A DNA stretch of 64,000 nucleotides from a virus: positions 1-64,000 of IMG/VR virus record IMGVR_UViG_3300045970_000027; one strand, written 5' to 3'. Position numbers and translations under genes: made by a program. A model generated the notes under the pieces. The model saw only the letters and a list, made by a program, of their open reading frames with translations. It was not told the origin of the DNA and made no database searches. Of the stretch, positions 287-57,383 are shown in pieces. How positions within the stretch are numbered: position 1 is the first letter of the stretch; every line of letters begins with the position of its first letter.

Positions 287-530
287 CAGCCTTCCTTTCG
301 GCGGCGCGATAGTCGGTGAACGCTTGGTCGATGAAGGTGTTCGGGCAGGACGTCACGGACGGCTGGTACGTATTACCGCAGTCTCCGCACTCCCACGACA
401 CCGCGAGGATGCCCTGCAGGTAGCCGTCGGAGTAGCCGTGCGCGAACGCGATGATCTCGGGGGTCTGCTTCACGGTGTGAAGACCACCACCAGTTCGCCA
501 CACGACGAGTCCTCGTTGAGGACCGTCCAC
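276..530 (-). CDS. Hypothetical protein with CxxC (WECGDCG)
   Basis: ORF track; packed in leftward operon; start uncertain. Confidence 0.5.
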   Translation of the reverse strand: MDGPQRGLVVWRTGGGLHTVKQTPEIIAFAHGYSDGYLQGILAVSWECGDCGNTYQPSVTSCPNTFIDQAFTDYRAAERKADAA

Positions 531-859
531 GGACTGAACGTCCCGTTGTCCTCGGAGACCCAGCAGTATGTCGGGTCGGGGACCACACCGTCCTTGCGTG
601 TGACACGGTGGTGCCTACTGCCACAGCCCTCACACCTGATGATGCTGCCGATGGGAGGCTCGGGGATCGGTGCCCTCTTGAGGACCTTGATGTCCCAGAC
701 GTCGGTCGCGTGGTAGTGGTCCATGAAGCCGTCGTCACAGGTGATCCGGAGAGTGTTAGGCGTCCTGCCCTGCTCCTCGGTGACGAAGCCACGGTAGACG
801 ACCTCAACGAAGTCGCCCTGCTTCAGGCCGCCGATAGCGGCCACGATGTTGGCGCTCAC
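470..859 (-). CDS. Hypothetical protein
   Basis: ORF 470..970 trimmed to GTG 859, which overlaps the upstream stop (GTGA). Confidence 0.55.
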   Translation of the reverse strand: MSANIVAAIGGLKQGDFVEVVYRGFVTEEQGRTPNTLRITCDDGFMDHYHATDVWDIKVLKRAPIPEPPIGSIIRCEGCGSRHHRVTRKDGVVPDPTYCWVSEDNGTFSPWTVLNEDSSCGELVVVFTP

Positions 860-1023
860 TTGACCACCAGAACGATCTGCCCGTTGACGTTGCAGAGGGA
901 GGTGCTGATGACGGTCCCGCTGATGGCGGCGCAGTAGCCGTTCGTGTAGCCCTGCATGAGGCCGACCCATCCGATGAAGGCGGCGAGGGCGAGGGCGAGG
1001 ATGATCACGACGAGGCCGCCCAT
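856..1023 (-). CDS. Small membrane protein (55 aa)
   Basis: Hand translation MGGLVVIILALALAAFIGWVGL...; AGGGGA RBS; coupled stop/start. Confidence 0.55.
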   Translation of the reverse strand: MGGLVVIILALALAAFIGWVGLMQGYTNGYCAAISGTVISTSLCNVNGQIVLVVK

Positions 1024-1107
1024 CAGAGTCCCCTCCCTGCGCGGAAGCCGATGAGGTAGGAGACGAGGGCGATCCCGAAGCCCGTGAAGAAGAAGGGCCA
1101 GTTCACG

Positions 1108-1389
1108 TCAGCGGCCATGCCTTGCGTGCGTACGACCGCCGCCGACGGCGTTACGACGCCATCCCTGCGGGTAGTAGCCGAGGCCGAAGTCGGGGGTGAC
1201 CCCGTACGCCGACGGGTCGAACGTCGCAGGGAAGCGAGCGGTCGCTGCGTCCAACCGGTGAGGCTTCGTCTGGCACTGCCAGAGGTTGGCGTAGTGGGGG
1301 GCCGTACACGTCCCCGTGGTGGCAGCCTGCGCGGGTGTAGCGGCGGTGAGCAGCCCTAGCGTCAGGGCTGCGGCTAGCAGAAGTTTCAT
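1108..1389 (-). CDS. Secreted hypothetical protein
   Basis: MKLLLAAALTLGLLTAATPAQA signal peptide; AAGGGGA RBS. Confidence 0.55.
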   Translation of the reverse strand: MKLLLAAALTLGLLTAATPAQAATTGTCTAPHYANLWQCQTKPHRLDAATARFPATFDPSAYGVTPDFGLGYYPQGWRRNAVGGGRTHARHGR

Positions 1390-1431
1390 GGTTCCCCTTG
1401 GTAGAGAGACTGTTGTCTCGACGTACAGCAA

Positions 1432-3838: not shown

Positions 3839-3844
3839 GTAACA

Positions 3845-3879
3845 AGGATCGCAACAGGGAGAGACAGAGTCTGGCTAAA
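3845..3879 (-). promoter_or_regulatory. Phage-specific promoter class, copy 1 of 8
   Basis: TTTAGCC-N22-GATCCT-N6-ATG. Confidence 0.6.
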
Positions 3880-4974
3880 AGGAGGGCTACTGCCTCAGGA
3901 CGGGAGACCTCAACCCTGATCTGCTAGGGGAGGTAGGTGGCTCTGTGGGCCTGCCTGACTGGCGGCTCCGCATGGTTGCCGCCACAAGCATAACCTGCTT
4001 GTCTGGCTAGAACATGCTCAAGTAAGCGACGGCATTTCACCTCGCCTAACCACCTATACCCTATAGGAGGGGTATGGAGGGGTAGGAGGGGTCACTTCTC
4101 ATCCTAGACTCCGATGGCCCCGATGTCTAATCGGCTGCAAGTAGGGGCTACTACGGCCTCGTTGGCTCGTTTGCCCCCTTGGCGCGTGGGCTACTGCCTT
4201 CGGGTCGGGGGGCTGTCTACGGCTGCGCTCTGGCCAGACCATGCGTGCGGGCGACTTAAGGGTGGGGGGCCTCGCGATTCCTCATACATACCAAGCCTTC
4301 TGACTCGCAGTCAGATGGTCGAGGGCTGAGAGTTGTTGCAGCGCAACGACTTTCGGCTGCTGGCTGGCTGGCTTGGTGGTCGCGTGGTGGCAGGCTCGGC
4401 TACTGGGCTGGCGGTGGCTGGGCCTGTGGGAGTACGGCCAGAGCAGGGAGGCATGGCCGAGATGTGAGCAAGTGACCAGCAGGCCAGCCAGCCAGCCGAG
4501 TGATCAGCCAGCCCGATGGCCCGATGAGCCGTGAGAACGAGGTACCCAACTCTCAACCTGTAGTCGAGACTTGTAGCAGGAGAGACAGACATACCGGACA
4601 CCTGTCCCGCATAGAGGAACGGGTAGATGTGGCCTGCGTCACATTGTGTACCCCGAGTTACAGGCTGATCAGCCATCCGAGGCCTGAGAGGGCCTACATC
4701 GGCAGTTTCAGGGGCCTGAGAGGGAGGCAGTACCCACCGAGGGTGGCTAGATGGCGACAGGAGCCACGCTGACAGTCTGGCTAGAGGGGAGGGTCTCTCT
4801 CTACCTCTCTACTCTCCTATCCCCTTAGAGACCCTTACAGGGGCTTCACAGTGTGAACGGCCCACCCCCGACGCCCTCCCGGCGCGGGAGGGCTCCCACT
4901 CATGAGGCCTGCAGGAGGGACACGGGCTGCATATGGGAGTTGCACCTGTCACGGGTACGTGGTTCGATTCTCTT

Positions 4975-5700
4975 GTACGACAGAGCAGCGCCAGCGCCGC
5001 CCCCCACTCGCGGGGATGACCTCAGGCCAGCGCCCCGCTCACCAGCACCGCCGGGTACGCCACCACCACACGGGGCCGGATGAGGGCACGGGCCTCCTCT
5101 CCGAGACACCACCGCCAGCGTGGCCCCGAGTATGGACGGTGAAGGACCAAGCGAGAGCCTGTTAGTGGCTCGCCAGCCGAGTACGACAGACGGCAGGGGT
5201 CTCCGAGAGGTAACCGAGGCAGCAGCAAGCCAGCCCAGCAAGACGGGGCAGGGGAAGCAGCGGAGCCGAGGGTAGGGGTAGGAGGCGCTGAGTGAGAGGC
5301 CACAGCGACTACAGGATGCAGCGAGGTTGAGTCACCGGGAACCTCCGCAAGGGATACGGCCTTGCGAGCGACTCCAGCAGCGGGACGAACAGCAACGAGA
5401 GCCATGCGCTCACGATCCCGAGCATGACCCGAGGGGTACGACCTAGTACGACAGAGAGGCCAGCACGACCGGCAGCCACCTTGGGCGACAGGCCAGACCA
5501 ACGCACCGTGTCTGAGACAACGGGCGAACACCACCAGAGAGGCCAAGCCTCACCAGCGCCTTCGGGCCAACACTCGCACCGGTTCGCGAGGGTGGAACAC
5601 CTACAGCAACGTGGCAGGGGCTGGCCTTCCGGCTGGCCCCTGCCCGCTGCGGTGGCTCTCTGACACTTCAGAGGGCGACCGGAGCGACAGACCACACACA
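4975..5700 (+). ncRNA. Candidate large structured non-coding RNA or long structured leader
   Basis: No credible CDS; T-poor; several stems, with C(UUCG)G, GCAA and GAGA tetraloops; family not recognised. Confidence 0.4.
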
Positions 5701-5719
5701 CCAAACAGAGGGAGTCACC

Positions 5720-6381: not shown

Positions 6382-6415
6382 GCCCCGGTGTGCGCTCACA
6401 GATCGGCACCGGGGC
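6382..6415 (+). terminator. Stem-loop after gene 5720
   Basis: GCCCCGGTG...CACCGGGGC. Confidence 0.5.
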
Positions 6416-6449
6416 ACGTCAGTCGTTCACACCGTGAAAGGGAGTCACC

Positions 6450-6746: not shown

Positions 6747-7193
6747 ATGAGCAAGCAGACCGCCGTCATCTTCGACATGGACGGCACGCTCGCCGACGTC
6801 CGGAGCATCCGGCACTTCGTCCTGACCAAGCCGAAGGACTTCACCTCGTTCCACAACGAGAGCGTGACCGTCCCGCCGCACGACTGGGTGGTCGATGCCG
6901 CCAAGGCGTGTCATGCCAACGGGGTCGCCGTCATCATCGTCACCGCTCGCCGGTCGATCTGGGCGCGACAGACAGGCATGTGGCTCGCTCTCAACGACGT
7001 CCCGAGTGACGCCATCTTCATGCGTCCCGAGTGGGACCACCGTCCCGACGTCGAGGTCAAGCGCGACATCCTCGCGGAGATCCGCGAGAGGTGGGACGTC
7101 GTCCACGCGTTCGATGACAACCCCAGCATCATTGCCCTCTGGAGGTCGGAGGGTATCGGAGTCACCACCGTCCCCGGTTGGAGTACAGAGTGA
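6747..7193 (+). CDS. HAD 3'-phosphatase (polynucleotide kinase phosphatase-domain-like)
   Basis: FDMDGTLA motif I, VTAR, MRP..D.RPD..VK, AFDDNP motif IV. Confidence 0.85.
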   Translation: MSKQTAVIFDMDGTLADVRSIRHFVLTKPKDFTSFHNESVTVPPHDWVVDAAKACHANGVAVIIVTARRSIWARQTGMWLALNDVPSDAIFMRPEWDHRPDVEVKRDILAEIRERWDVVHAFDDNPSIIALWRSEGIGVTTVPGWSTE

Positions 7194-7474
7194 GCACCGC
7201 AACAAACAACCGCCCCATCGACACCAGCCGCAAGATGCAGGAGTGGGTCCTCCCCAAGGGCGACACCCACACCTTCATGCAGGCATACGTCGGCGAGACC
7301 CACTCGACGGTCGTCTTCTTCACCCGTGAGCGTGCGTCAGCCATACGCGTCCCCTTCTTTGAGGACCGCTGCAGCGACCTGCAGGATGACGGCTTCGTCG
7401 TCTTCTACCACCGTGTCAGCAACGCCGACATCACCGCCTACCTCACCGACGTTCACACCGTGAAAGGAAACTAG
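7190..7474 (+). CDS. Hypothetical protein
   Basis: ORF track, GTGA coupling. Confidence 0.6.
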   Translation: MSTATNNRPIDTSRKMQEWVLPKGDTHTFMQAYVGETHSTVVFFTRERASAIRVPFFEDRCSDLQDDGFVVFYHRVSNADITAYLTDVHTVKGN

Positions 7475-8779: not shown

Positions 8780-8833
8780 CCCTGTCACTCCAACTAACAC
8801 TCCGACTGACATTCACACTGTGAAAGGAAACTG

Positions 8834-9070
8834 ATGGTTGACACCGAGACCACACCCAAGCCGAGCCTGACCGCACACGACAGGTGCTGCGCTACCGCGA
8901 ACGGGACCGAGGCCGCACAGGTCATCGTGACCATCGGTGAGGGTGAGCCGCTCCTCTTCTGCGGCCATCACTACGACAAGCATGCAGCCGCGCTGGACAC
9001 CTTCGGCGCGGTCGTCATCGACACCCGCAACACGACGCCGACCAACCGGCAGCAGGGAGACCACCAGTGA
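8834..9070 (+). CDS. Small actinobacterial-type Cys/His protein
   Basis: LTAHDRC...AQV...LLFCGHH motif. Confidence 0.75.
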   Translation: MVDTETTPKPSLTAHDRCCATANGTEAAQVIVTIGEGEPLLFCGHHYDKHAAALDTFGAVVIDTRNTTPTNRQQGDHQ

Positions 9071-9918: not shown

Positions 9919-10245
9919 ATGACCACCATCTACACCGTCGTCCTGCGGGTCGACAAGCACGACGACTTCAATGACATCGTCCCCGGCTACGACAGCGAGG
10001 ACTGCATCGAGGTCTGGGGCATCTTCACCAACCGCGAGGATGCCTACGCCTTCCGCGCCGAGTGCGACAAGGTCTACGTCGAGCGGCTCAAGGCATACGG
10101 TCGCTTCTCGCCCTACGGCCACATCACGTTCGATGTGCAGATCCCCCGCTGGGATGACAGCCGCTCCACCGAGGTCGGCTACAACCGCGTGTACAACGCC
10201 CAGCGCGCCGTCCTCAACTACTTCCCCGAGGACGACGATGACTGA
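9919..10245 (+). CDS. Hypothetical protein
   Basis: GGAGG RBS + ATG 9919. Confidence 0.7.
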   Translation: MTTIYTVVLRVDKHDDFNDIVPGYDSEDCIEVWGIFTNREDAYAFRAECDKVYVERLKAYGRFSPYGHITFDVQIPRWDDSRSTEVGYNRVYNAQRAVLNYFPEDDDD

Positions 10246-10588
10246 GACCATCACGGTCATCCAACTCACCACGCCGTGTGGGTTCTGCATGACAGGAGCG
10301 CACACCAACTGCCGCATCGAGACCAGCCCGTGGTTCGGGAAGGTCTGGCGCTGCGGCTGCGAGTGTGACAAGTCGAAGGTCGAGCGCGTTCACACTGTGA
10401 ACGTTCCGACCATGCGGCCTGCTCGCGTGGTCGCCCTCCCCGAGGTCGAGCCAGCACCAGCACCAGTCAGCAAGCGACAGCGCCGCAAGGATGCCAAGGT
10501 CACCGCCGCAGCACAGGAAGTGCTGGACGAGATCATGGCGAGCGACGAGGTCCAAGACGAACTGAGGAAGTTCGATGATCAGCCCTGA
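10238..10588 (+). CDS. Cys-rich hypothetical protein
   Basis: CGFC..H..C...CGCEC. Confidence 0.65.
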   Translation: MTETITVIQLTTPCGFCMTGAHTNCRIETSPWFGKVWRCGCECDKSKVERVHTVNVPTMRPARVVALPEVEPAPAPVSKRQRRKDAKVTAAAQEVLDEIMASDEVQDELRKFDDQP

Positions 10589-12309: not shown

Positions 12310-12346
12310 GGGGGCGTTCACAGTGTGAAAGCCGTGAGCGCCCCCG
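12310..12346 (+). terminator. Stem-loop enclosing a 13-bp motif copy
   Basis: GGGGGCGTTCAC...GTGAGCGCCCCC. Confidence 0.45.
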
Positions 12347-14372: not shown

Positions 14373-14398
14373 GGGGGTGCGTCAACCGGCGCACCCCC
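14373..14398 (+). terminator. Stem-loop after VWA gene
   Basis: GGGGGTGCG...CGCACCCCC. Confidence 0.55.
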
Positions 14399-14425
14399 AA
14401 CCCTTCACAGTGTGAAAGGAATGTC

Positions 14426-14647: not shown

Positions 14648-14747
14648 CCGCCACAAACGCGCCGCTCCAGCGGGGTCATCAGGGGCAGCACCTGACGGCG
14701 CACCATACGTAAGCCATTCACACTGTGAACGAAAGAGAGGGAGCATC

Positions 14748-15497
14748 GTGAAGATCGCAGAACTGAAGGTCGGGGACATCGTGCAGGTCTCCGGTACCGC
14801 GTCCAACTACAACTGCATCATCCTCGCCATCGGCCGCTGGGAGGCAAAGCCGTGGGAGGCCGACCCCAAGAGTGGTGGCTACGTCAAGCATACGTTCGCC
14901 GTGCGCGGCCGTGAGTACACGACCCAGCAGTGGTTCACCCACGACGCCAGCCTGACCCGCGACCGAGTGGTCTTGGCCGAGATGCGCGATGGTGGGTACG
15001 TCATCTCCAAGTCTGCCGCCGTAGTCCGCTACCCCGTCACCGATGACGACCGCATCCATACGATCCTGCATGGGGAGGCTGCGGCCAACGCGGAGGCGCT
15101 GAAGAACGATGCGATCAACGAAGTCCTCAGGTCGATGGTCAGCACCAAGATGGAGGTCCTCGCGGCCGTCGCAGGCTTCTCCAATAGGGATGCCGAGGGT
15201 TGGATGCACCGGTACAACAACCCGTTCTACGAGTTCCTGTCCGCCCTCAGGACGAAGGAGGACTTCATCCAGCAGATGTTCCTCCTCTGGATGAAGTACT
15301 CGCAGGCACGCGGGGAGACCATCAACGGGCTCGACCCGGCCGACCTCATCGAGCAGTACACCGATGTGATCAAGGAGCACCGGGCCATGACGGCCGAGCG
15401 GCCAGCCCTACTACAGAAGGCACGCGAGACCGCTGGCGTGCAGATCGGCTCAGACGAGTGGAACGCCCCCCTCACCCTCGATGGAGTAGCAGCATGA
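14748..15497 (+). CDS. Hypothetical protein
   Basis: 249 aa; GAGGGAG RBS. Confidence 0.8.
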   Translation: MKIAELKVGDIVQVSGTASNYNCIILAIGRWEAKPWEADPKSGGYVKHTFAVRGREYTTQQWFTHDASLTRDRVVLAEMRDGGYVISKSAAVVRYPVTDDDRIHTILHGEAAANAEALKNDAINEVLRSMVSTKMEVLAAVAGFSNRDAEGWMHRYNNPFYEFLSALRTKEDFIQQMFLLWMKYSQARGETINGLDPADLIEQYTDVIKEHRAMTAERPALLQKARETAGVQIGSDEWNAPLTLDGVAA

Positions 15498-16344: not shown

Positions 16345-16730
16345 GCGAGCGACCAGAAGTAGACCCAATCGACTACCTGCTGGCTGACCTCCACCGCGTC
16401 CTCTGCGGAGAGGGTGTCCACATGGGGCCGTGCCCCAACCCGCTGGCAGAGCAGGTCCTGCACAGGCCGTCCACGCGAATCTGGCTGGAGCGCGTCGTGT
16501 CCGGTGCCCGTGCTGATGAGCGTGAGAACTGGGAGCCGATGGTCCAAGCCCTGACCGACGAACTGCTGGCTAAGGATCAACCGCCAGATCCGAGCATGGG
16601 CGCTCAGTACCTCGCTGGCGTCAAGGCTGCGCGCGACGCGGTGGCTGCCACTGAACTGCGGGTGTTACACGCCAAGGGTGACGCCCTCGCCGCTATCGAC
16701 GGCCTTGGGGCTAGCGAGTCGCCTCTGTGA
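16341..16730 (+). CDS. Hypothetical protein carrying the AGVKAARDAV..ALAAIDG module
   Basis: C-terminus shared with 18572, 20532 and 21092 genes. Confidence 0.65.
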   Translation: MSERPEVDPIDYLLADLHRVLCGEGVHMGPCPNPLAEQVLHRPSTRIWLERVVSGARADERENWEPMVQALTDELLAKDQPPDPSMGAQYLAGVKAARDAVAATELRVLHAKGDALAAIDGLGASESPL

Positions 16731-17049
16731 ACTGGACGATGAGGGCCTCAGGTACACGACCCTTCTCGTTGACCTCGATCCCGTTCCTCTTCGCCCACTC
16801 CCGCACGTCCTTGGTGTCAACCTTCACACGACGAGGGGAAGGCGCACTGAGCGCCTCAGGTCTCGGTGAGGTGTCGGCACCAAGGCGGCGGGCTTTGGGG
16901 ATGAACGACTCGATCAGGTCGATCAGGTCACCACCATGCTTCTCGCATAGGTCGGCCTCGTAGAACGCCGACTGCCAGCCCAGCCTCACGGGATCCCGGT
17001 TAGTGGGGGCCTCGCATACGTCACAGATTCTCATCAACCTAGTAGCCAT
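16711..17049 (-). CDS. lsr2: Lsr2-family nucleoid/xenogeneic-silencer-like protein
   Basis: YEADL dimerisation motif; VREWAKRNGIEVNEKGRVP AT-hook domain; ATG 17049. Confidence 0.85.
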   Translation of the reverse strand: MATRLMRICDVCEAPTNRDPVRLGWQSAFYEADLCEKHGGDLIDLIESFIPKARRLGADTSPRPEALSAPSPRRVKVDTKDVREWAKRNGIEVNEKGRVPEALIVQFTEATR

Positions 17050-17064: not shown

Positions 17065-17274
17065 ATGTCCGACCTCATGGATACGACCGCAGTAGCAAAC
17101 TACGTCGGTCTGAAACGAGAGACCGTCCGCTGGTACCACAAGTTCGACAAGATGCCGCCAGCCGACAAGTACTTCGGCCGCTCCCCCGTCTGGGAGAAGA
17201 CGACCATCGACCAGTGGGTAATCGACCGCGACACCGTTCACACCGTGAACGACAACGAGGAGGAGGAGTCATGA
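17065..17274 (+). CDS. AlpA/excisionase-like HTH DNA-binding protein
   Basis: LMDTTAVANYVGLKRETVRWY...P.P...GRSPVW....IDQW; AAGGAG RBS. Confidence 0.75.
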   Translation: MSDLMDTTAVANYVGLKRETVRWYHKFDKMPPADKYFGRSPVWEKTTIDQWVIDRDTVHTVNDNEEEES

Positions 17275-18923: not shown

Positions 18924-18983
<60 letters not shown>

Positions 18984-19100
18984 CAACCAACCCATACCCA
19001 ATGGCGTTCCACCCGGTCGGAGGCACCTTCCGGTGTCTACGGCTGGACAACGAGTCTCGCCACCATGGTGACGAACCCACGATAATAGGAGTGAAGTCAC

Positions 19101-20234
19101 ATGGTCTACACAGCAGCACGTAACGGTCGCTACACCGCGTACTACCTCGACGCCCTAGGTCGTCGTCGGTCTGCCGGTACGTTCGACACGGAGGGTGAGG
19201 CCCTCATCAGGGCAGCCGATGCCGAACGCAACCCCGGCACTCCTACCCACGGTGTGGCCAGCCAGAGGTACGCCGACTACATCGAGGCGTGGTTCCTGAC
19301 CGACTCCGTCCTCCCGGTCACGATGAACGGGTATGAGACCCACCTGAGGAAGCACGTCCTCCCCCTCATCGGGCACATGCCGGTCGGGGCGATCACCATT
19401 CACACTGTGAAAGGGGCTCTGGCTGACATCCGTAGTAAGGGGGCCAGTTCTCATACGGTGGCTCAATGCAAGGCGGCCATCGGCTCGTCATTCAAGCCTC
19501 TCGTCCCTACCGTCGTACTGGCCAACCCGACCCACGGCATCAAGATCCCGATCCCGCCGTCGAAGCCGTTCGACCTCGTTGACGAGGAGACGTTCGGTGC
19601 CATCCTCGCCAACCTCCCTACTCAGGGTTCCCGCCTCTTCGCCCTCTTCCTCGTCGCTACCGGCACACGGTTCGGGGAGGCGTCCGAGGTCCGCGTCCGC
19701 GACTTCAACTTCCGGACGAACGAGGTGGCCATCGTCCGTCGTGCGTCACAGGTCGGCTCTCGTCGGAACCGGGGCTCCCGCTACGCGGTGGTCGAGGGGA
19801 CGAAGGGTGGCATCTCCCGTGGCCGCTACCTCCCCGTCCCAGCCGAGGTCGCCACCATGATCGAGGACTGGGTCCGAGGTCTATCTGCCGACTCCCTCGT
19901 CTTCCCGAAGGACCGTGTCCTGTCGAACGCCCGTGCGAGGCGGTCTGCCACAAACGTGACCGGCCACCTCCCGAACGATAGGTGGAGGAAGGTCTGGAGG
20001 AAGGCCATCGAGGCTGCCGGTCTCGACTGGTACCCGAGGACGCACGACCTACGGCATGCCTACGCGACCAATCTGGTTGCGGAAGGTGTGAGCCTCCCCG
20101 AGACGAAGGACCTACTTGGCCACGCCAACATCATCACGACCATGAAGTACCAGCACGCAGTCGACCGCCAACGGAGCAAGGCCAGCAAGGCCGTCTCCGA
20201 CTTCATCCGAAAGGCAAACCATGGCACCCCGTAA
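19101..20234 (+). CDS. int: Tyrosine integrase
   Basis: TGTRFGE, TKGG, HDLRH, LGH..I.TT.KY catalytic set; next to attP. Confidence 0.93.
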   Translation: MVYTAARNGRYTAYYLDALGRRRSAGTFDTEGEALIRAADAERNPGTPTHGVASQRYADYIEAWFLTDSVLPVTMNGYETHLRKHVLPLIGHMPVGAITIHTVKGALADIRSKGASSHTVAQCKAAIGSSFKPLVPTVVLANPTHGIKIPIPPSKPFDLVDEETFGAILANLPTQGSRLFALFLVATGTRFGEASEVRVRDFNFRTNEVAIVRRASQVGSRRNRGSRYAVVEGTKGGISRGRYLPVPAEVATMIEDWVRGLSADSLVFPKDRVLSNARARRSATNVTGHLPNDRWRKVWRKAIEAAGLDWYPRTHDLRHAYATNLVAEGVSLPETKDLLGHANIITTMKYQHAVDRQRSKASKAVSDFIRKANHGTP

Positions 20235-33610: not shown

Positions 33611-33904
33611 CTAGTGAACAGTCACCGAGAAGAGAATCGCCGAGATCGTGCCGTCCCGAGACTCGATGCTGGTGAAGCCGGGGACGCAGGAGAGGTCGTA
33701 CCCGCGAGGAGCCACGTACCCCCGCGCGATGGCGATGGCCTTGACTGCCTGATTCACGGAGCCTGCGCCGACTGCTCGCAGTTTGACGCTCTTCGTCTCG
33801 TACAGTGCGTGAGCAATCGCCGAGGCGACTGACTGGGGATTCGATCCCGCGCTGACGCGGAGTGGCTGATCCTCGGAGGAACCAGCAGCGGTTGATTCGG
33901 TCAT
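33611..33904 (-). CDS. spoVS: Stage V sporulation protein S family (Alba-like) protein
   Basis: LRVSAGSNPQSVASAIA...AVGAGSVNQAVKAIAIARG.VAP.G.DL.C.PGF. Confidence 0.9.
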   Translation of the reverse strand: MTESTAAGSSEDQPLRVSAGSNPQSVASAIAHALYETKSVKLRAVGAGSVNQAVKAIAIARGYVAPRGYDLSCVPGFTSIESRDGTISAILFSVTVH

Positions 33905-37047: not shown

Positions 37048-37402
37048 TCTCCATCACCCATTGTTTGAACGTGGTGTTCTTGAGTCGAAGTGCCTTGAAC
37101 TTACGGAGGAGGTGGGATCGTTCACGGTGTGAAAGGCCGCCCCAGATCCCGTGGGTGTCTTCCATCTGGACGGCGTGCAAGAGGCACTCCTTGCGTACGG
37201 AGCACTCTGGGTCCCCCTCGCCGGTCCCCCAGCAGATGGCCTTGGCCTCGTCTGCGATGGTCTTGTAGAGGGCCTTGTCACGGGGCGGGTAGAAGATGTC
37301 GCCGACCTGCGGCGTCCCGTCTTCCCCGGCGTAGAGGTAGGTCGTGTCCCGGCTGATGCACTTGGAGGTGTATCGCCATGCCCATTCTGGCTCGTAGTCC
37401 AC
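36995..37402 (-). CDS. whiB: WhiB-family transcription factor
   Basis: Four Cys (AKAIC..CSVRKECL) and GIWGGLS.RER; GGGAG RBS + GTG 37402. Confidence 0.88.
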   Translation of the reverse strand: MDYEPEWAWRYTSKCISRDTTYLYAGEDGTPQVGDIFYPPRDKALYKTIADEAKAICWGTGEGDPECSVRKECLLHAVQMEDTHGIWGGLSHRERSHLLRKFKALRLKNTTFKQWVMENDGGLKAKQFIKQVPRH

Positions 37403-39639: not shown

Positions 39640-39998
39640 GGGGTCGGTAGTCCTTGCATCTCTCGTCCTTCGGTGTAGCCGCAGGAGTAACAGCGCGGGG
39701 GAACCTTCGCCATCCCGGTCTGGCTAACCACTGCGGCGCTATTGGCTCGGGAGAAGAAGAGGTCGCTCCCGCACATCGGGCAGTTGGACGACTCCGTACG
39801 AGCCGCCTCTCCACCCCTCCACTGCATGGCGGCATCGAACGTGTTCTCGATGGTCACTTGGATGTCCTGCTGCCTCTGCTGCGGCTGTGCTGGGGGCTGG
39901 TACTGGGGCCGCTGGGTTACCGGAGGTCCCGGTCGGTACGCAGGGGGCGCTGCAGGCTGCGGGTTCCCCATCTTGTTGGCCCACCAACTACTGCTCAC
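39636..39998 (-). CDS. Pro/Gln-rich zinc-ribbon protein
   Basis: CPMC...CYSC; coupled. Confidence 0.7.
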   Translation of the reverse strand: MSSSWWANKMGNPQPAAPPAYRPGPPVTQRPQYQPPAQPQQRQQDIQVTIENTFDAAMQWRGGEAARTESSNCPMCGSDLFFSRANSAAVVSQTGMAKVPPRCYSCGYTEGREMQGLPTP

Positions 39999-40555
39999 GC
40001 TGCCCGCCCCTTCGGCTTCTCGTCGTCCTTGACAGTCGCCTTGAAGAGGCTGTTGGAGGCTGTATGGAAGACGACGACACCTTCGGGGTCCATGAAGCCG
40101 GGAGAGGCCACCGAGCCGAACTCAGACAGGAGGTCGAGTTGGTGGTCCACGGCCCCCGTGGTGAACGGTCCCTCGTACAGGATGGGGACTGCACGGAGGC
40201 ATGGGACGAGGTGGCCGATGGTCTCAGGGGTCCACCGAGACACGTTGAAGAGCGAGAACCGCTTCTCCGTCAGGCCGTACCCGCGCTGGACACCCTGACC
40301 CCACCACTCTCCGAAGTGGAGTCCTTCACCCAGAGTCTCAGCCAGTTCCCAGCGATTCTGGTCGACCCACTTCGCGAACCCGTGGTTGTCGTCGGACGGA
40401 GTGATGATCCGCTTGCGGGACTGGGCTACCACGATGGGGAAGCCGCCCTGATCGTAGGTGATGTTGATCGCGGCGTTCGTGCCGTCGATCTTCTCGGTGA
40501 TAACGATCTCCCGGTTGAGGCGGGGGATCTTAGGGAATGGAACGAAGTCAGTCAT
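39995..40555 (-). CDS. Minimal Rnl2-like RNA ligase (adenylyltransferase domain)
   Basis: TEKIDGTN, FGEWWG, F.LF, VPILY.G, EGVV, FK. Confidence 0.85.
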   Translation of the reverse strand: MTDFVPFPKIPRLNREIVITEKIDGTNAAINITYDQGGFPIVVAQSRKRIITPSDDNHGFAKWVDQNRWELAETLGEGLHFGEWWGQGVQRGYGLTEKRFSLFNVSRWTPETIGHLVPCLRAVPILYEGPFTTGAVDHQLDLLSEFGSVASPGFMDPEGVVVFHTASNSLFKATVKDDEKPKGRAA

Positions 40556-40980: not shown

Positions 40981-42995
40981 TTTCCTTTACCCCAAGTCTC
41001 TGCGATCTTGACGTCTGCGATGAGTGGGACCTTGAGGAAGGTGATTCCCTCCATGGCCTTACGGATGGCCTCTGCGGTCTCGTCCGCGAGGTGGGTCGGA
41101 GTGGTCGTAACCAACTCGTCATGGATCGTCAGAACGAGGTGAGCCTCGTCTGGGATCATCTTGCTAGCGCGTACTAGTGCCATCTTCATGATGTCGGCCG
41201 CGCTGCCTTGGATCAGCGTGTTGAAGCACTGACGCTCGGCCTTGGCTACCTGCCACCAGACGTCGCTCTTGAGGTCGGGGAGGTAACGACGGCGACCGGT
41301 GATCGTGGCGACGAACGGGACGGGGATCTGCTTCTTGGCCGTACGAATGCTAAGGGCCTTGAGCATGTCGATGTTCTTGAACTTGTGCGAGAACTCGTAT
41401 AGGAGTTCCTTAGCCTCATCGACAGAGCAGCCGATCTGGCTGGCGATCTTGTCGGGGCCGACTCCGTACGCGATGGAGAGGACGAGGACCTTGCCAGCCT
41501 TTCGGTCGACCCCCATCGTGTCGCCGATGGTCGTGTAGATGTCACCACCCGACATGTAGTTCTCGACCATGATCGGGTCCTTGCTGAAGGAGGCGATGAT
41601 GCGTGGCTCGATCTGGCTGTAGTCGGCGACGACCAGCGTCTCCCCCTCGGGAGCGATGAAGAGGTTGCGGATCAACTTCCCGTAGTCCGTGCTGGCGTTG
41701 GGGACGTTCTGCAGGTTCGGGTTCCGGCTGGAGAAGCGGCCGGTCGCCGCACCGATCTGGTTGAAGTCGGTATGCAGGCGGCCACGGTCGAGCAGTGCGT
41801 CCTGAATGGACGTGCGTGACTTACCGTTCACAGTGTGAATGCGGGTACCCCCGAGGTAGGGGATGACGTACGTACTGCTGAGTTTGGCGAGGTCGGAGTG
41901 CTCCAGCATGGCGTCAACGAGGATGTCTGTATCCCGCAAGGCCTCCAGCGCTTCCGCAGACGTGCTGTAGTCGTGCAGGGTGAGCGTCTCCTTGTTGCGC
42001 TTCCTCTCCCGGCCTTTGTCAGTCAGGATCTTCGCCTGCAGACCACGACCACCCTCCTTCTTCGGGAGGAAGAGGAGTTCGCCCTTCTCCTTGGTCGCAT
42101 TGAGGTTGAACTGCCTACCGGCGATGCGGAAGACCTTCTCCTTCGCCTGTGCGATGTCGATCTCCAACCGCTTGGCCAGATCCTCAAGAGACTCGGTGTC
42201 GAGAGGTGTTCCGGTCAGTCTCATCAGGGTGACGACGGGGAGGACGTCCATCTCTAGCGCGAAGACCTTGCGTAGGCTGTCGCGCTCGATGAGAGGCTCC
42301 ATGGCCTGCCACGCCTTGACGGTGGCGACGACGTCGAGGTGTGCGTACTTGGCTACCTCAGTGAAGCCGTGCGCCTCGATCTCCTTGCCGACGCCCTTGA
42401 CCATCTCGACCCCGGCGTACTTCTTGGCTACATCCTTGAGGTTGAAGCCGTACCCCTTGTCGGAGTCGATGAGGAAGGCAGTGACCATCGTGTCGGCATA
42501 CGGTCCGGCTGGGATGCCGCCGATGTACTTGGCAACCGAGCCAAGGTCGAACGCGAGGTTGTGGCCGACCTTCAGCATGTCCGACATGAAGAGAGGCTTG
42601 AGGGCGGTGAACGTCTCCGTACGGGTCAACTGCTCGGGGGCGTCAGTCCAGACCGTCTGCGCCTTCTTGATGTCGGTGCTGTAGTCGGTCTTGCGGGGGT
42701 CGAGTCCACGCGACATGCGGTCGCGGAGGTCCTGCGAGTCCTTGAGAGCCATGATGTGCTCAACGAACTCACCGTGGGGATGCCCCATCGGGATGACGCA
42801 GGAGAAGAAGTCGTTTGCGAGGGCGATCCATGTGACGTTGTTACGCCACGTATCACCACGGTGGTCGCCCATCGTCTCGACGTCGAACGCCAAGAACTGG
42901 CCGGTTGAGAGTAGTTCGACTGCGCGGTCTAGGCCAGCGCGGTCGGTGACGAGGACGTAGTCCTCAAGTCGAGTCGGTTCAAGAACAGCAAGCAC
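40977..42995 (-). CDS. polA: Family A DNA polymerase with 3'-5' exonuclease
   Basis: FDVET, GHNL.FD, YA..D; TGRFSSRNPNLQN, ADYSQIEPR, R..GK....I.YG, N..IQGSAAD, IHDEL. Confidence 0.95.
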   Translation of the reverse strand: MLAVLEPTRLEDYVLVTDRAGLDRAVELLSTGQFLAFDVETMGDHRGDTWRNNVTWIALANDFFSCVIPMGHPHGEFVEHIMALKDSQDLRDRMSRGLDPRKTDYSTDIKKAQTVWTDAPEQLTRTETFTALKPLFMSDMLKVGHNLAFDLGSVAKYIGGIPAGPYADTMVTAFLIDSDKGYGFNLKDVAKKYAGVEMVKGVGKEIEAHGFTEVAKYAHLDVVATVKAWQAMEPLIERDSLRKVFALEMDVLPVVTLMRLTGTPLDTESLEDLAKRLEIDIAQAKEKVFRIAGRQFNLNATKEKGELLFLPKKEGGRGLQAKILTDKGRERKRNKETLTLHDYSTSAEALEALRDTDILVDAMLEHSDLAKLSSTYVIPYLGGTRIHTVNGKSRTSIQDALLDRGRLHTDFNQIGAATGRFSSRNPNLQNVPNASTDYGKLIRNLFIAPEGETLVVADYSQIEPRIIASFSKDPIMVENYMSGGDIYTTIGDTMGVDRKAGKVLVLSIAYGVGPDKIASQIGCSVDEAKELLYEFSHKFKNIDMLKALSIRTAKKQIPVPFVATITGRRRYLPDLKSDVWWQVAKAERQCFNTLIQGSAADIMKMALVRASKMIPDEAHLVLTIHDELVTTTPTHLADETAEAIRKAMEGITFLKVPLIADVKIAETWGKGK

Positions 42996-43771: not shown

Positions 43772-44215
43772 CTAGTTGGCAGTATCGGTAAGGGCAGTCC
43801 ATCGCTCAAAGATGGCGATGGTGAGGTCGTCGTGCTGGTTCCACTCGACGCGAGCGGCACCGAGGAGGCCACGCTTGTGGAACTCCTGCACTGCTATGTC
43901 GATCAGGCCCCGTGTAAAGACGCGCTTACCGGGGACGGTCTTACCAGCGCGGGCGGCACTGGGAAGTCTGTAGGGACTCTTCGGGATGTACGCCTTGCGC
44001 TCCCAGAGTCGGATGGTGACGGGTGACTTTCCGAGGGCGTTAGCCAGAGCGCCGAGCAGGAAGAACTCGGTGTCCACCCCGCCCAACTTCTTGATGATCG
44101 GCTTCGCGTCCCACGCAGGCTCCTCGACGCTGGCGGTCGCCTCACGGCGAGTCTTCTTGCTACCGGGGTAGCGGGAGTCGAGGTCTGCGAACTCCTTGTC
44201 GATGTCGTAGGTCAC
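43772..44215 (-). CDS. MerR-like HTH DNA-binding protein
   Basis: GALANALGKSPVTIRLWE....IP......R.FT. Confidence 0.7.
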   Translation of the reverse strand: MTYDIDKEFADLDSRYPGSKKTRREATASVEEPAWDAKPIIKKLGGVDTEFFLLGALANALGKSPVTIRLWERKAYIPKSPYRLPSAARAGKTVPGKRVFTRGLIDIAVQEFHKRGLLGAARVEWNQHDDLTIAIFERWTALTDTAN

Positions 44216-50724: not shown

Positions 50725-51342
50725 TCACTCCTTTGTCCACGTTACCTCGGAGAAGGCCGACCGCATCTGGTAGTCGTCGGGTAGGCCCGAGAGGGAACGC
50801 GCAACTGGAGTCGAGATCACCGTGGGCAGGCCTCTGTCGTACCTGCGGCTCAGTACTCCTGAGATCAGGTTATCCGACCATCCGGATGCTGACTGGTGAT
50901 GCGTGCCGACGTCTTGGATCACCATGAGGTCTACCCAACGGTGGTCGCCCAGCCGCTCATCGGCGTTCGGGGACTCGGCCTCGACTAGGTCGTTCACCGT
51001 GAGGTAGAGCCCGCTCTTCGCCGCCCCCAAGACGAGCGCGGTCTGCAGGAGGGTGGCCGCGTAGAAGTGGCCACGGTCGTCGGGGGTGGTGAGCCATAGG
51101 CCCTTACCGACATGGTCGCGGATCTCGACGGCCTTGGCCGGGTCCTGTGTGACGATGAAGTTCCCCTGCATGAACATCTGGAAGTACGTCTTCAAGAAGT
51201 CCTTCGGGGTAGACGCCGCCATGGTCTTCTTGATCCTTGCCTCGTCTGCCCCACCCGCGTAGACGAACCTCGGCGGGATGTTCGCCTGTCGGACCAGTGA
51301 TACGACGCGAGCGTCTGTCGTGACTGCTACTTCTTGAACCAT
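50725..51342 (-). CDS. DnaC/IstB-like helicase-loader homolog with degenerate Walker motifs
   Basis: ANIP.RF, GKGL.L, DL.VIQDVG, RRY..GLPT.IST; GGAGG RBS. Confidence 0.65.
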   Translation of the reverse strand: MVQEVAVTTDARVVSLVRQANIPPRFVYAGGADEARIKKTMAASTPKDFLKTYFQMFMQGNFIVTQDPAKAVEIRDHVGKGLWLTTPDDRGHFYAATLLQTALVLGAAKSGLYLTVNDLVEAESPNADERLGDHRWVDLMVIQDVGTHHQSASGWSDNLISGVLSRRYDRGLPTVISTPVARSLSGLPDDYQMRSAFSEVTWTKE

Positions 51343-52202
51343 GAGACCTCCTGCTCCTGTAGGTGCTCGATGTACGCGGTAGACAGGCTGGCCTGCTTCC
51401 CGCGAAGAGTGTCGATGTTGCGCTGGATGTACGAGAGGAACAACTTGTAGGCCGGGAAGTCGTTGGAGATCTTGGCCGTCTCTCGGCTGTCGGCGAAGAA
51501 CTGGTCGAGCAGGGTGGCGCAGTCCTGAGGCGTGAGGCCTTCCTTCGCCCAGACCTTCAGCGCGAACATCAGGCTGTTGCCGCCAGTGTGGTTCCCCCGC
51601 AGGTTGGGTAGGTCGTGCCATGAGGCCGTTGTGGGCAGGTAGGCCTGAGAGACCCGCTGCCGGAAGTCGGCTACGACGTCGTCCATCGTCCACTGCTCGC
51701 GTGGGACGAGGTTGCGGAACTTCTGAGGCTTCTGCTTGACCGCCTTCGACTTCGGCTGAGGTCGCTCACCGATGAAGCCGACCCCGCCGATGTCATCCCC
51801 GTCGTCCTGCCACCGTGCCACGGTCGTCTCCTTGATCACTTCGATACCCTTGACGGGGGCAGCGCCCCCTACTACTGATTCTTTAGAATCAGTAGGAGCA
51901 TGACTAGTAGTCTGAGTAGTAGGTAGGTAGACCGAAGAGTTTCGCGCCATATCAGGCGCGACTCGCGCCACATTCGACTCATCTCGCGCCAGCACTTGGT
52001 ACGTCCCACGGACGATTACGGTCAGGATTCCGGCCTCAACGAGGGTGGAGATCACCCTCTGGGTAGCCCTCAGGGACATGCCGAAGTACTCGGCTACCTC
52101 AGCCGATCTGACGTTGAGAGGCTGGTCACCAGCCATGTCGAGCAGGATGTGCGCGACCTTGTAGGCGTCCCCCGGCAGTGCTGCCAGAGCAGGGTTGATC
52201 AT
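51327..52202 (-). CDS. HTH replication-initiator-like protein
   Basis: N-terminal wHTH (EVAEYFGMSLRATQRVISTLVEAG), S/T linker, upstream of loader and helicase. Confidence 0.6.
   Translation of the reverse strand: MINPALAALPGDAYKVAHILLDMAGDQPLNVRSAEVAEYFGMSLRATQRVISTLVEAGILTVIVRGTYQVLARDESNVARVAPDMARNSSVYLPTTQTTSHAPTDSKESVVGGAAPVKGIEVIKETTVARWQDDGDDIGGVGFIGERPQPKSKAVKQKPQKFRNLVPREQWTMDDVVADFRQRVSQAYLPTTASWHDLPNLRGNHTGGNSLMFALKVWAKEGLTPQDCATLLDQFFADSRETAKISNDFPAYKLFLSYIQRNIDTLRGKQASLSTAYIEHLQEQEVSWFKK
51872..51991. other. Candidate replication origin inside the initiator gene
   Basis: TCGCGCCA x3 at 21-bp spacing (51942, 51963, 51984); AT-rich 11-bp inverted repeat 51872-51895. Confidence 0.55.
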
Positions 52203-52735: not shown

Positions 52736-52765
52736 TATGGGTTCCTATACTTTTAGTGTTGTTAG

Positions 52766-55063: not shown

Positions 55064-55066
55064 GGA

Positions 55067-55606
55067 TTACCACTTGCCGATTGGGCAGGCCGCCCGTGCG
55101 AGGGACGTCTTCCACTTGGTCACACAGCCACACGCCGTGCAGATACCCAGTTTCAGGGATGGGCAGGGGGCGCAGATGTCAAGCCGGGACTGCTGGAGTT
55201 CGGCTGACGACTTCTCCTCGTTCGGGTTGAGGAGGTCCCACGGACGGACAGGCTTCGCAGTCGACACTGTGGTCGGTGAGGTGACCGTGATGAAGCCCTC
55301 CTCCTCCAGCATCACGAAGCCGTTGATGTGCGCGAACTTCGCCGTGTACTTCGTACGGCCGACTGGAATCCCCCACGTATCGGGTAGGTGGATCTCGGCA
55401 GTCATATTGGCGTCCCACTGACGGTTGACCAGAGTTACCTGAGTCCCGACCAAGAGACGATCAGACGTACCGTCGGGGTACTCAAGCAGGACGCTCGACT
55501 CGGGGAAGTCAAGCGTGAGACCATCACTCGTCGGGTAGAGACCGATGGGCGTCCACACGATGTCGAGCGGGTCGCCCTGCACCACTGCGTAGTGGTTCTT
55601 CTTCAT
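55067..55606 (-). CDS. Tail-associated protein with C-terminal 6-Cys domain
   Basis: RL.IC..CP.L..GIC..CGC....KT.L..A.CP.GKW. Confidence 0.65.
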   Translation of the reverse strand: MKKNHYAVVQGDPLDIVWTPIGLYPTSDGLTLDFPESSVLLEYPDGTSDRLLVGTQVTLVNRQWDANMTAEIHLPDTWGIPVGRTKYTAKFAHINGFVMLEEEGFITVTSPTTVSTAKPVRPWDLLNPNEEKSSAELQQSRLDICAPCPSLKLGICTACGCVTKWKTSLARAACPIGKW

Positions 55607-56202
55607 GAGACCTTCCACCATTCGTTTGTTCCTTGGGTATACCCACTGCCTTGCGGCGTGTAGTTGAGCGTGTAGTAGTTGTTGTAGTACCCCGCGTGGC
55701 AGACCCAGCCGCAGCAGTTGACTCCATCGCCGCAGCCGTTGAACGTCCCACAACCGCACTGCTGACCGGGAGGGCCGCAGTTGTCGAACGTCTGGTTCGT
55801 GCAGACGTAGTCACTGTGGTAGACGTCGTTGACGAGAGGCTGGTGGTCCATGTATGCCGCTGTCGACTGGGGCGCGTTGGACGCCCACCCTGCCGTGACA
55901 CTGAAGCGTGCGGTGGCCCCGGTGAGGGTGAACTGGTTGAGGGTCCCGTTCCACGTTGCCGTACCAGTACCGGTTAGGAGGGTCGGTGTGTAGACCGCGT
56001 TGGCTACCGGGTTGGTGACGCTGAAGACCAAGTTGCTGACGTACCCCGTGATGGGGGCGGTCGGCGGGATGCCGAGAGTGGTGACCCGCCAGACACCCGC
56101 CACCTTCTCGTAGACGGTCCCACCTGTATGCCAGACGCCACCGACCTTGGCGTAGACGTTTCCCGGCGTATGCCAGACGCCACCGACTTTGACGTAACTC
56201 AT
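55603..56202 (-). CDS. Tail fibre adhesin-like protein with Cys-rich tip
   Basis: Three Y.KV.GVW repeats at N-terminus; 8-Cys C-terminus. Confidence 0.7.
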   Translation of the reverse strand: MSYVKVGGVWHTPGNVYAKVGGVWHTGGTVYEKVAGVWRVTTLGIPPTAPITGYVSNLVFSVTNPVANAVYTPTLLTGTGTATWNGTLNQFTLTGATARFSVTAGWASNAPQSTAAYMDHQPLVNDVYHSDYVCTNQTFDNCGPPGQQCGCGTFNGCGDGVNCCGWVCHAGYYNNYYTLNYTPQGSGYTQGTNEWWKVS

Positions 56203-57293
56203 CAGACGTACACGATCCAGAGGTCTCCATCAGCCCCGGTCGCATTGGACGGAGCACCGGCAACGCTGGTGATCCAGACCTGACGTACGCCCGCGCTGAT
56301 GGCCGCAGTTGGGGATACGACGGTGACGGCACCCGTGAAGGTTGCTCCAGCCAGCGGTGCATATGTTCCAGAGAGGCCGGTGACCGCCGTCTGTGGGATG
56401 TTGGAGAGTGTGTTCAGCGAACCGTTGATCGTCTTGTTGGTCAGGGCCTGCGCGTCGGAGATGGTTGCTGCCTGCACACCCGCCTGCTGCAGTGTGGTCG
56501 CGTTGACTGTCCCACCACTGATCGTTGCACCAGTAGCCGTGAGGGTTCCTGTGAGCGTCCCTGCCGCGATGGCCGGTGCGGTCAGCGTCTTGTTAGTCAG
56601 GGTATCCGTGGTGGCCTTGCCTACGAGGGTATCTGTGGCTGCGGGGAGCGTGAGGGAAGTAGTCCCAGCAGCGGCTGTGGCCAGAAGTGTGGTCGTCCCT
56701 GATACCGAGCCGTTGAACTTCGCGCCCGTACCGCCGATGGTTGGCAGGGTCAGCGTCTTGTTGAGCAGGGTATCCGTGGTGGCTAGCCCTACCAGAGTGT
56801 CCGTGCTAGTAGGCAGCGTGAGGGTGGCTGCTCCCGCGTTGGTGAGGATAGTCGCGATCTTCGGCGCGGTCAGCGTCTTATTGGTCAACGTGTCGGTCGT
56901 CGCCTTGCCTACCAGCGTGTCGGCCGTTAAGGGGAACGTGACCGTGGCAGTTCCCGTGTTGGTCAAGACACTGTCGATCTTGGGGGTCGTCAGGGTCTTG
57001 TTGGTCAGGGTCTGCACCCCAGCCAGAGTCACCCCGGTAGACGCCGACGCCGTAGTGCTGCTCAGGAAGCCGAGGTTCGACTCGATGTTGGTCAGGCGCG
57101 CAGAGACCGACGCGTGTGTCGCCGGTACGGCCCAAGTGCTCCCCCATGCGGAAGAGAGGAGGCCAAGCCCGAGGGTGGACTGAGTCGCGTTGACCTCGTC
57201 CTGCAGGACGTTGACGTGGTCAGCCAGAACGGAGTCGACAAGGTCGGTCTTGGCGACGAAGACCTTCACCGAGGAAGGGAAGACTGCAGCCAT
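56202..57293 (-). CDS. Tail fibre protein
   Basis: TL(T/L)NKT x5 and DTLVG.ATTDTL x3; C-terminal G.DGDLWI. Confidence 0.8.
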   Translation of the reverse strand: MAAVFPSSVKVFVAKTDLVDSVLADHVNVLQDEVNATQSTLGLGLLSSAWGSTWAVPATHASVSARLTNIESNLGFLSSTTASASTGVTLAGVQTLTNKTLTTPKIDSVLTNTGTATVTFPLTADTLVGKATTDTLTNKTLTAPKIATILTNAGAATLTLPTSTDTLVGLATTDTLLNKTLTLPTIGGTGAKFNGSVSGTTTLLATAAAGTTSLTLPAATDTLVGKATTDTLTNKTLTAPAIAAGTLTGTLTATGATISGGTVNATTLQQAGVQAATISDAQALTNKTINGSLNTLSNIPQTAVTGLSGTYAPLAGATFTGAVTVVSPTAAISAGVRQVWITSVAGAPSNATGADGDLWIVYV

Positions 57294-57383
57294 CTGAACC
57301 GCCTAGTGGTCTGGGTATCTACCCCATTGTCGTGGACCGTTCACAGTGTGAAAGGGCTAAACCTCGGGGCTAGAAGGTCTCGC

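Follow-up and report, generated by a model that had tools for sequence, protein, structure and literature searches.

Dispersed copies of a 13-bp palindrome in an uncultured temperate actinobacterial phage as candidate operator sites of a phage-encoded regulator

Features of the phage genome

The stretch analyzed here (the window) comprises bases 1-64000 of the 84,305-bp virus record IMGVR_UViG_3300045970_000027 in IMG/VR, for which CheckV gives a completeness of 88 %. Scattered through this sequence is a 13-bp palindromic site, TTCACACYGTGAA, which is the subject of this report. The phage studied is called G000 below, L-numbers denote related IMG/VR and metagenome contigs, and G009 is an unrelated contig. 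G000 is a temperate actinobacterial phage and is myovirus-like by its baseplate proteins. In addition to these, it encodes WhiB, an Lsr2-like protein, endonuclease VII, a tyrosine integrase, a MoxR-type AAA_5 ATPase, a VWA protein, ribonucleotide reductase (RNR), a DpdA-like transglycosylase, DnaB, a helicase, RecA, an RNA ligase, a primase and a capsid protein. The genes between 5.7 and 21.4 kb run rightward, and those from 84.3 to 21.4 kb and from 3.8 kb to position 1 run leftward. No close relative was found among the named phages, and PolA is only 36-37 % identical to that of Streptomyces phages. Of the sequencing runs, those listed as holding the phage are two DNA runs of pond metagenomes, and no RNA run is among them.

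The core of the phage attachment site (attP) lies at 18924-18985, directly upstream of the integrase gene (19101-20234), and 59-63 nt of it match the 3' part of tRNA-Pro(GGG) genes in many uncultured Actinomycetes, Nanopelagicales, Haloechinothrix and Dietzia genomes. ARAGORN calls a full tRNA at this core, yet its 5' part diverges from the host genes.

Copy number and geometry of the palindrome

The first-pass annotation of the window had listed 15 exact copies of the site and one copy with a single mismatch at 34956-34968 (minus strand; in a DUF5679 gene, where it reads VHTMK). All of these are present, whereas the number of exact copies expected is 0 (none in 100 dinucleotide-preserving shuffles of the window). 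When the full 84,305-bp record was scanned, as had been proposed, the count rose to 17 exact copies, the extra two being located at 71438 and 81077. With the exception of one coding repeat, the palindrome is the top-repeated 10- to 12-mer family of the genome. A literature search for the motif strings found no paper on them.

The geometry of the site is fixed. The TTCAC and GTGAA halves are paired solely at a spacer of 3 bp (17 times) and never at spacers of 0-2, 4-6, 8 or 9 bp, and the central triplet is restricted to ACC, ACT, AGT and GGT (ACY/RGT) in all 17 copies. The 13-bp form can be written as TTCACA-S-YGTGAA, which with Y = T is a perfect 6-1-6 palindrome centred on a C:G pair. It is often lengthened to (C)GTTCACA-S-TGTGAAC(G), and about half of the copies are lengthened to CGTTCACA-S-TGTGAACG. 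The central pair is always C:G, whichever the orientation, which fits the recognition of duplex DNA.

Placement of the copies relative to genes, hairpins and promoter-like elements

Placement statistics were obtained with a curated map of 120 genes, in which 92 % of the genome is coding (8.1 % non-coding). Eight of the 17 copies are intergenic, far more than the non-coding share would give (P = 2e-5), and nine touch genes; copies at gene boundaries number 11. The rightward, integrase-proximal arm from 4.8 to 19.4 kb holds 11 of the 17 copies, and most of its sizeable intergenic gaps contain one copy.

A start codon is found 9-21 nt downstream of six copies (P = 2e-5). It had been claimed that five of them abut a ribosome-binding site, which holds for all five and likewise for a sixth at 17237. 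At the copy 6426-6438 (+) the order is stop codon, GC-rich hairpin (about 6382-6415), site, Shine-Dalgarno (SD) sequence and ATG (6449). The intergenic copy at 8812-8824 (+) abuts the SD of the DUF7455 gene 8834-9070, the copy at 14404-14416 (-) is located 5 nt past a strong hairpin (14373-14398) and abuts the SD of the gene at 14426, and the intergenic copy at 14717-14729 (+) is 18 nt upstream of the GTG at 14748. Two copies provide the final codons of one gene directly before the SD of the next: 7452-7464 (+) closes gene 7178-7474 (as VHTVK) and abuts the SD of gene 7477, and 17237-17249 (+) is at the 3' end of a small helix-turn-helix (HTH) gene (as VHTVN), 21 nt upstream of the ATG at 17271. 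In four copies, the site is fused with the SD as GTGAAAGGA.

Strong GC-rich hairpins are found beside or around the copies at 6426, 12317, 14404 and 81077. The copy at 12317-12329 (-), which had been described as part of a hairpin, was confirmed to lie within a GGGGGCG...CGCCCCC structure (-32 kcal/mol) at the junction of the AAA_5 and VWA genes. The TGA of the copy at 469-481 (-; ACC centre) is the stop codon of gene 470-970, so that the site stands at the start of a 183-nt gap. The copy at 4845-4857 (-) falls in the 1.9 kb of non-coding DNA that separate the divergent arms (3839-5719). This region has no convincing open reading frame (ORF) and carries odd GCCAGCC-type repeats; no Rfam family was found in it, and the Rfam scan of the window likewise returned no family.

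A second motif, TTTAGC[CG]-N22/23-xAnnnT, has six copies, all of them on the minus strand ahead of leftward genes (window positions 3879, 33977, 53048 and 57361; genome positions 71499 and 81102). Three of these promoter-like elements sit 6-7 nt before a start codon, a distance which suggests leaderless mRNAs. The palindrome is found in three of the six elements, either in the spacer (57340 and 81077) or at about +6 to +18 (71438), which is the classical operator position. The copy at 57340-57352 (-) had already been assigned to a promoter spacer, and we place it in the 23-nt spacer of a TTTAGCC...GACAAT element whose TTTAGCC box is at 57353-57361 (-). The copy at 81077, at the junction upstream of gene 79995-81041, is also in a 23-nt spacer, with a register 4 bp apart from that of the other; no further copies are found in such spacers. 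The copy at 71438 is just downstream of its element, over the first codons of a GH5-like gene. Between 3.8 and 21.5 kb, sigma-70 consensus promoters and terminators were not above chance.

According to the first-pass annotation, the asymmetric centre points with transcription in 13 of 15 copies. The tendency is weaker than that: in the window we count 12 co-oriented copies, two in the opposite orientation and one unassignable (12, four and one in the whole genome), and the bias is confined to in-gene copies (8:1, compared with 4:3 for intergenic copies). Codon preference can explain the in-gene bias. ACC is the commonest Thr codon of the genome (43 % of Thr codons), and the sense strand is C- and A-rich; the reverse orientation needs AGT or GGT, which were taken as minor codons on the assumption of about 80 % GC at third positions and not from counts. 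In the related contigs L182 and L183, nine of nine intergenic copies are co-oriented, and given these the site may have some polarity.

In-gene copies are spelled against codon usage

The in-gene copies are written into several reading frames. They are found at 10389-10401 (+) in the conserved ORF 9971-10588 (VHTVN), at 19399-19411 (+) in the tyrosine integrase gene (IHTVK, with the rare codons ATT and AAA), at 24159-24171 (-) in the endonuclease VII gene (SHRE, spelled TCA CAC CGT GAA), at 37121-37133 (-) in the WhiB gene and at 41827-41839 (-) in the DNA polymerase I gene. The readings (V/I)HTV(K/N) and SHRE that had been given for them are correct. In the confident gene set, all SHRE (2/2) and all xHTVx (3/3) peptides are spelled by the motif, whereas codon usage predicts this spelling at 0.2 % and 0.7 %, respectively. 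The genomic frequencies of the codons concerned are 9 % (TCA), 18 % (CGT), 18 % (GAA), 9 % (GTT), 7 % (ATT) and 4 % (AAA). Judged by this spelling, the site is maintained against codon usage, by selection at the level of DNA and not of protein.

When these genes were compared with their homologs, the peptide could be kept while the site was not. The WhiB peptide G-G-(L/M)-S-H-R-E-R is retained in L002 and L004, while the spelling CTT TCA CAC CGT GAA occurs in G000 only. In PolA, relatives have VTRV(T/I) at the place where the site of G000 reads RIHTV. Conversely, a tail gene of L010 has its own copy of the site (VVHTVN) where G000 has VTHRIT. The in-gene copies arose via point substitutions in place and not by insertion, and they are lineage-specific gains whose position is not conserved. 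Outside genes, the copy at 57340 is located inside a 29-bp stretch which is missing from L010.

Conservation and variants in related phages

The same dyad was found in IMG/VR and metagenome contigs at 54-66 % protein identity. The AAA_5/VWA junction contains a GGGGGCG...CGCCCCC-type hairpin with the site in G000, L182 and L183. The site also recurs in L021, L033, L055 and L041 at the junction upstream of gene 79995-81041, although the intergenic DNA around it has diverged. The first-pass annotation had made its reading depend on conservation at homologous positions in relatives, and this was observed for these two junction copies and not for the in-gene copies. In L001-L004, one copy each is found in a poorly conserved linker of the homolog of gene 51327-52202, at two different positions.

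Other relatives carry variants of the site. In L182 and L183 the variant is TTYACACCGTRAA. L184 and L185, whose AAA_5 proteins are 54-55 % identical, have TTCA-N4-TGAA instead, in the same layout of stop codon, site, SD and ATG; in L184 there are 12 copies of this variant in 14 kb, where well under one is expected. That the lineages vary the site and yet place it alike fits a phage protein which co-evolves with it. Scans of IMG/VR with 15-mers otherwise gave mainly single chance matches, and a group of 17-kb contigs with a 15-mer match was set aside as these merely have one conserved gene segment in common.

The site in bacterial genomes and in an unrelated contig

It had been pointed out that equal abundance in the host chromosome would make the palindrome a host site. 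No copies were found in five candidate-host genomes with the attP tRNA-Pro core (15 Mb). When 401 Actinomycetes genomes were searched, 26 had any copy, with a maximum of two per genome. The inspected matches lie in ordinary-looking sequence; three of them (from two related genomes and one other) are over a putative GTG start and the rest have no common context. Because of its absence from the five attP-core genomes and its scarcity in the 401, the site is considered phage-specific, and the idea that it belongs to Actinomycetes chromosomes was rejected.

One contig outside the family also has the site in number. G009 (IMGVR_UViG_3300009175_000040; 36 kb, 48.5 % GC) carries nine copies of GTTCACA-S-TGTGAAC, i.e. 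the same 15-bp core, lengthened to a 25-bp palindrome. Seven of the nine are found in short gaps, mostly between co-directional genes. G009 and G000 have no detectable protein in common except a distant DNA polymerase, and blastp and profile searches for a binding protein common to both returned nothing. The parallel is either convergence or a hint of a common factor.

Comparison with known repeats and operators

The closest published case is the 17-bp dyad repeat of cluster O phages, TGTTCGGNNNCCGAACA, of which Corndog has 34 copies with a 3-bp spacer, intergenic and in-gene, with unknown function (PMC4351075). Cluster O genomes have tens of copies, denser in one arm, and no clear polarity or known binder was reported; the authors set this repeat apart from the cluster A stoperators, which are asymmetric and oriented, and from the SAS repeats of cluster K, which are linked to starts (PMC4351075). 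G000 resembles the cluster O phages in its invariant inverted halves, the 3-bp spacer, the presence of both intergenic and in-gene copies and the denser arm. It differs in the sequence of the half-sites, in the arrangement (5-3-5 or 6-1-6 instead of 7-3-7) and in copy number (17 instead of 34). In addition, the G000 sites overlap promoter-like elements and abut ribosome-binding sites, and cluster O phages are not obviously temperate, whereas G000 has an integrase and attP.

The stoperators of cluster A, which the first-pass annotation had named as precedent, are many 13-14-bp sites for the repressor (L5 gp71, Bxb1 gp69), mainly in short intergenic gaps, with a proposed role in stopping transcription and silencing the prophage (PMC4351075). 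As an analog this comparison stands, since G000 is also a temperate actinophage with many dispersed 13-bp copies (17 in 84.3 kb). The two are not of the same family, as stoperators are asymmetric and kept in one orientation while the G000 site is palindromic and occurs in both (12:4; intergenic 4:3). No gp71-like repressor was recognised in G000, although no search aimed at one was made. The SAS of cluster K is an asymmetric 13-bp repeat that accompanies the translation starts of many genes and hardly ever occurs apart from a start (PMC4351075), whereas only six of the 17 G000 copies are 9-21 nt before a start and the others are found in promoters, in hairpins and deep in genes.

The suggested resemblance of the half-sites to parS could not be upheld, as there is no match to the 16-bp parS consensus GTTTCACGTGAAAC with up to three mismatches. 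The CRP/FNR and Rex arrangements (TGTGA-N6-TCACA and TGTGAA-N4-TTCACA) were also rejected: the half-sites of G000 are everted with a 1-3 bp spacer, and the canonical arrangement is found only as one chance match with one mismatch. The CIR operators of the phiC31 repressor gene c, attributed to Ingham et al. (1994), are said to be highly conserved palindromic operators (conserved inverted repeats) which recur in the intergenic regions of the early arm of this temperate actinophage and are bound by its repressor. If so, they are similar in kind, with a sequence and a repressor family probably unrelated to those of G000. MerR proteins recognise dyads located in promoter spacers, and the ram sites of RacA are dispersed 14-bp palindromes. 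The comparison is of interest as the candidate binder encoded at 43772 has a predicted MerR-type winged-HTH (wHTH) fold (see below). In contrast to MerR operators, just two of the 17 copies are in a promoter spacer, their registers are 4 bp apart, and the candidate has no evident effector domain. Taken with these comparisons, the palindrome is an operator-like network outside the stoperator, parS, CRP/Rex and SAS families.

Candidate binding proteins

About 100 proteins were scanned against Pfam. No CI/Cro-type repressor was found among them, in agreement with the earlier statement that no classical immunity repressor is visible, and no ParB_N match was obtained in this 88 % complete record. 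The region at 71.5-74.2 kb had appeared as a plus-strand island and was considered as an immunity cassette, but it is actually one minus-strand gene (genome 71495-74374) for a 959-aa protein with dozens of 14-aa R-x-T-T-W repeats; the plus strand there has 18 copies of CCCACGT[CA]GT.

Three genes that had been named as candidates do encode HTH-type proteins. The best candidate is the 147-aa protein of gene 43772-44215 (-), for which 231 homologs were found in uncultured phage contigs. Across the phage family the HTH hardly varies, and the same holds for the segment ALGKxxVTIRLWERxxYIPxxPYRL among the homologs; phages with the same motif have an identical HTH. The protein itself has no Pfam match; one homolog carries PF00376 (MerR) and one is named 'HTH merR-type'. 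The AlphaFold2 (AF2) model has a pLDDT of 82.6. In the structure comparison with VIA, the top 19 rows are nearly all MerR-family wHTH proteins, with two excisionases among them (Z 4.5-6.0 over 57-80 aligned residues). The top rows of Foldseek are also of the MerR family, with E-values of at least 0.05, and the matches from a profile search of PDB sequences (MerR and CadR) were all non-significant. Of the candidates, the 43772-44215 protein is the most plausible binder.

Alternative binders are a Xis-like HTH protein and a winged-HTH protein. The former, a 69-aa Xis/HTH_17-like protein (gene 17065-17274, +), adjoins Lsr2 and the integrase and has conserved counterparts there in L182 and L184. 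G000 and L182 have one and the same HTH in this protein, and L184 has another, parallel to the motif. It may simply be an excisionase. D29 Gp36 is a small MerR-like phage protein reported as a repressor (PMC12266134). The adjoining Lsr2-like gene, 16711-17040 (-), is the sole clearly leftward gene in the rightward arm and is divergent from the Xis-like gene, and the same pair is found in L182. We presume that the Lsr2-like protein could silence the prophage, as CgpS does.

The third candidate is the winged-HTH protein which heads the replication module (gene 51327-52202, -). Although L001-L004 have a copy of the site in this gene, the case for it is weakened by a recognition helix that differs between G000 and L001-L004 while the motif is the same. 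A lambda-O-like origin in this gene of the relatives was also considered and dropped, as the relatives have a single dyad there and the G000 gene has none. Finally, the gene for the binder could be located in the 12 % by which the record falls short of the full genome.

Other features of the genome

A queuine tRNA-ribosyltransferase/DpdA-like gene, 24290-25816 (-), adjoins the endonuclease VII and RNR genes, and the phage DNA may contain 7-deazaguanine. Gene 33611-33904 (-) encodes a SpoVS-family protein (Pfam 1e-29), which ranks among the most strongly conserved of the family, with about 80 % identity in L002 and L004. Coding regions for a PNKP-type phosphatase domain and for an RNA ligase are found at 6747-7193 and 39995-40555, respectively; the two may form an RNA-repair pair. 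A 43-bp segment (14925-14967, in gene 14748-15497) has 95.5 % identity to the first bases of Sinorhizobium phage phiLM21, beside the phiLM21 integrase; it is not tRNA-like, and the match may be due to chance.

Interpretation and alternative explanations

On balance, we favour the explanation that the copies are operator and roadblock sites of a dimeric DNA-binding regulator encoded by the phage. This agrees in part with the first-pass annotation, which had read them as binding sites of a dimeric phage protein that silences or organises the whole genome; of the 17 copies, however, 11 are found in a single 15-kb arm. The palindrome is phage-specific, has a fixed geometry, overrides codon preference, is conserved at junctions and overlaps promoter-like elements, and in these respects it looks as the site of a dimeric phage protein would. 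Of the six TTTAGCS-type promoter-like elements, the bound regulator would occlude three (81077, 71438 and 57340). At junctions and inside genes it would act as a roadblock, mainly in the rightward integrase-proximal arm. In this way one regulator would set the expression of many transcription units, with the probable outcome that these are silenced during lysogeny or in one phase of infection.

Several observations weigh against this explanation. The copies are dense in the integrase-proximal arm, with its MoxR/VWA, Lsr2 and PNKP-phosphatase genes, and sparse in the replication and structural genes, which would be the prime expected targets of a lysogenic silencer. Fusion of the site with the SD could point to a role at the RNA level. 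An exact MerR-type spacer mechanism is unlikely because the two spacer copies differ by 4 bp in register, and the MerR fold matches of the best candidate have only middling Z scores. The scanned proteins include no CI/Cro-type repressor, and in G009 no homolog of any candidate binder was detected by blastp or by wHTH and MerR-type profile searches. The tie of each candidate binder to the site is one of plausibility.

If the transcribed palindrome formed a small hairpin directly 5' of the ribosome-binding site, it could be an operator at which an RNA-binding protein controls translation, or else a signal for processing or stability which separates the cistrons of a polycistronic early mRNA. The six copies close to start codons, four of them fused with the SD, would be explained in this way, as would the order of stop codon, site, SD and ATG kept in relatives, the sense-strand ACC centre of all nine L182/L183 copies and the many copies beside strong junction hairpins, which are possible mRNA 3' ends. 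However, in isolation the hairpin is a 5-bp stem of about -4 kcal/mol and does not surpass shuffled sequences (z +0.9 to +1.1), and TTCACACCGTAAA, the commonest variant in relatives, disrupts a stem pair. The stem never co-varies, which indicates that it is read as sequence and not as shape. Besides, the intergenic copies of G000 occur in both orientations, the two promoter-spacer copies are upstream of any transcript start, and five copies are deep within genes. The weak hairpin, the stem-breaking variant, the missing co-variation, the C:G centre and the copies upstream of transcripts favour recognition of duplex DNA, and a function in RNA seems unlikely.

Recognition of duplex DNA could also be the work of a host protein, if the phage had accumulated consensus sites of a global regulator or nucleoid protein of its host, for gene timing or for titration of the factor. 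Half-sites of the TGTGA/TCACA type are usual for several HTH families of bacteria, the unrelated G009 has the same 15-bp core nine times with no detectable DNA-binding protein in common, and no dedicated repressor is visible in G000. We regard this explanation as quite unlikely: the site is near-absent from the candidate hosts and from the 401 Actinomycetes genomes, where the inspected matches look ordinary, relatives with the same gene order use other variants, including the 12-bp TTCA-N4-TGAA, the arrangement of the half-sites is unlike that of CRP, Rex or parS sites, and the host of G009 may be non-actinobacterial. A structural or recombinational signal, i.e. centromere-like or condensation sites for a RacA- or ParB-like anchor, or boundary repeats that promote module exchange among related phages, is very unlikely in our view. 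It would agree with the 11 of 17 copies at gene boundaries, with the 29-bp indel around the 57340 copy relative to L010, with the fold that the best candidate binder has in common with RacA, and with the cluster O 17-bp repeat, which flanks an inserted gene (PMC4351075). On the other hand, no ParB_N protein or parS-like sequence was found, the copies lack centromere-like clustering, the in-gene copies came from point substitutions and not from insertion, and three copies coincide with promoter-like elements.

Returning to the phage-encoded regulator, a wider and rather doubtful proposal can be added. CI-type repressors may be missing from a large family of uncultured actinophages of freshwater and ponds (myovirus-like, 80-100 kb), which would instead run a palindromic 'stoperator' network via the conserved MerR-type protein. 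The dyad would then be a promoter-spacer operator, a junction roadblock beside terminator hairpins and a rare-codon intragenic roadblock in one, and sister lineages would have re-tuned the site (to TTCA-N4-TGAA).

Implications

For uncultured phages there are few ways into the study of gene control, and repeated operator-like sites provide one. Here, a clean 13-bp site comes with clear evidence in the sequence that the DNA is selected over the protein, with positional conservation in relatives, three candidate binders and a linked promoter-like motif. With these in hand, the regulatory circuit of a widespread group of freshwater actinophages becomes testable with synthetic DNA and purified proteins. 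No new category is opened by it, as the stoperators and the cluster O repeats are precedents. If the binder were a factor common to G009, the site would mark a regulatory code across phages. A confirmed pair would provide actinobacterial genetics with a compact palindromic operator and its repressor.

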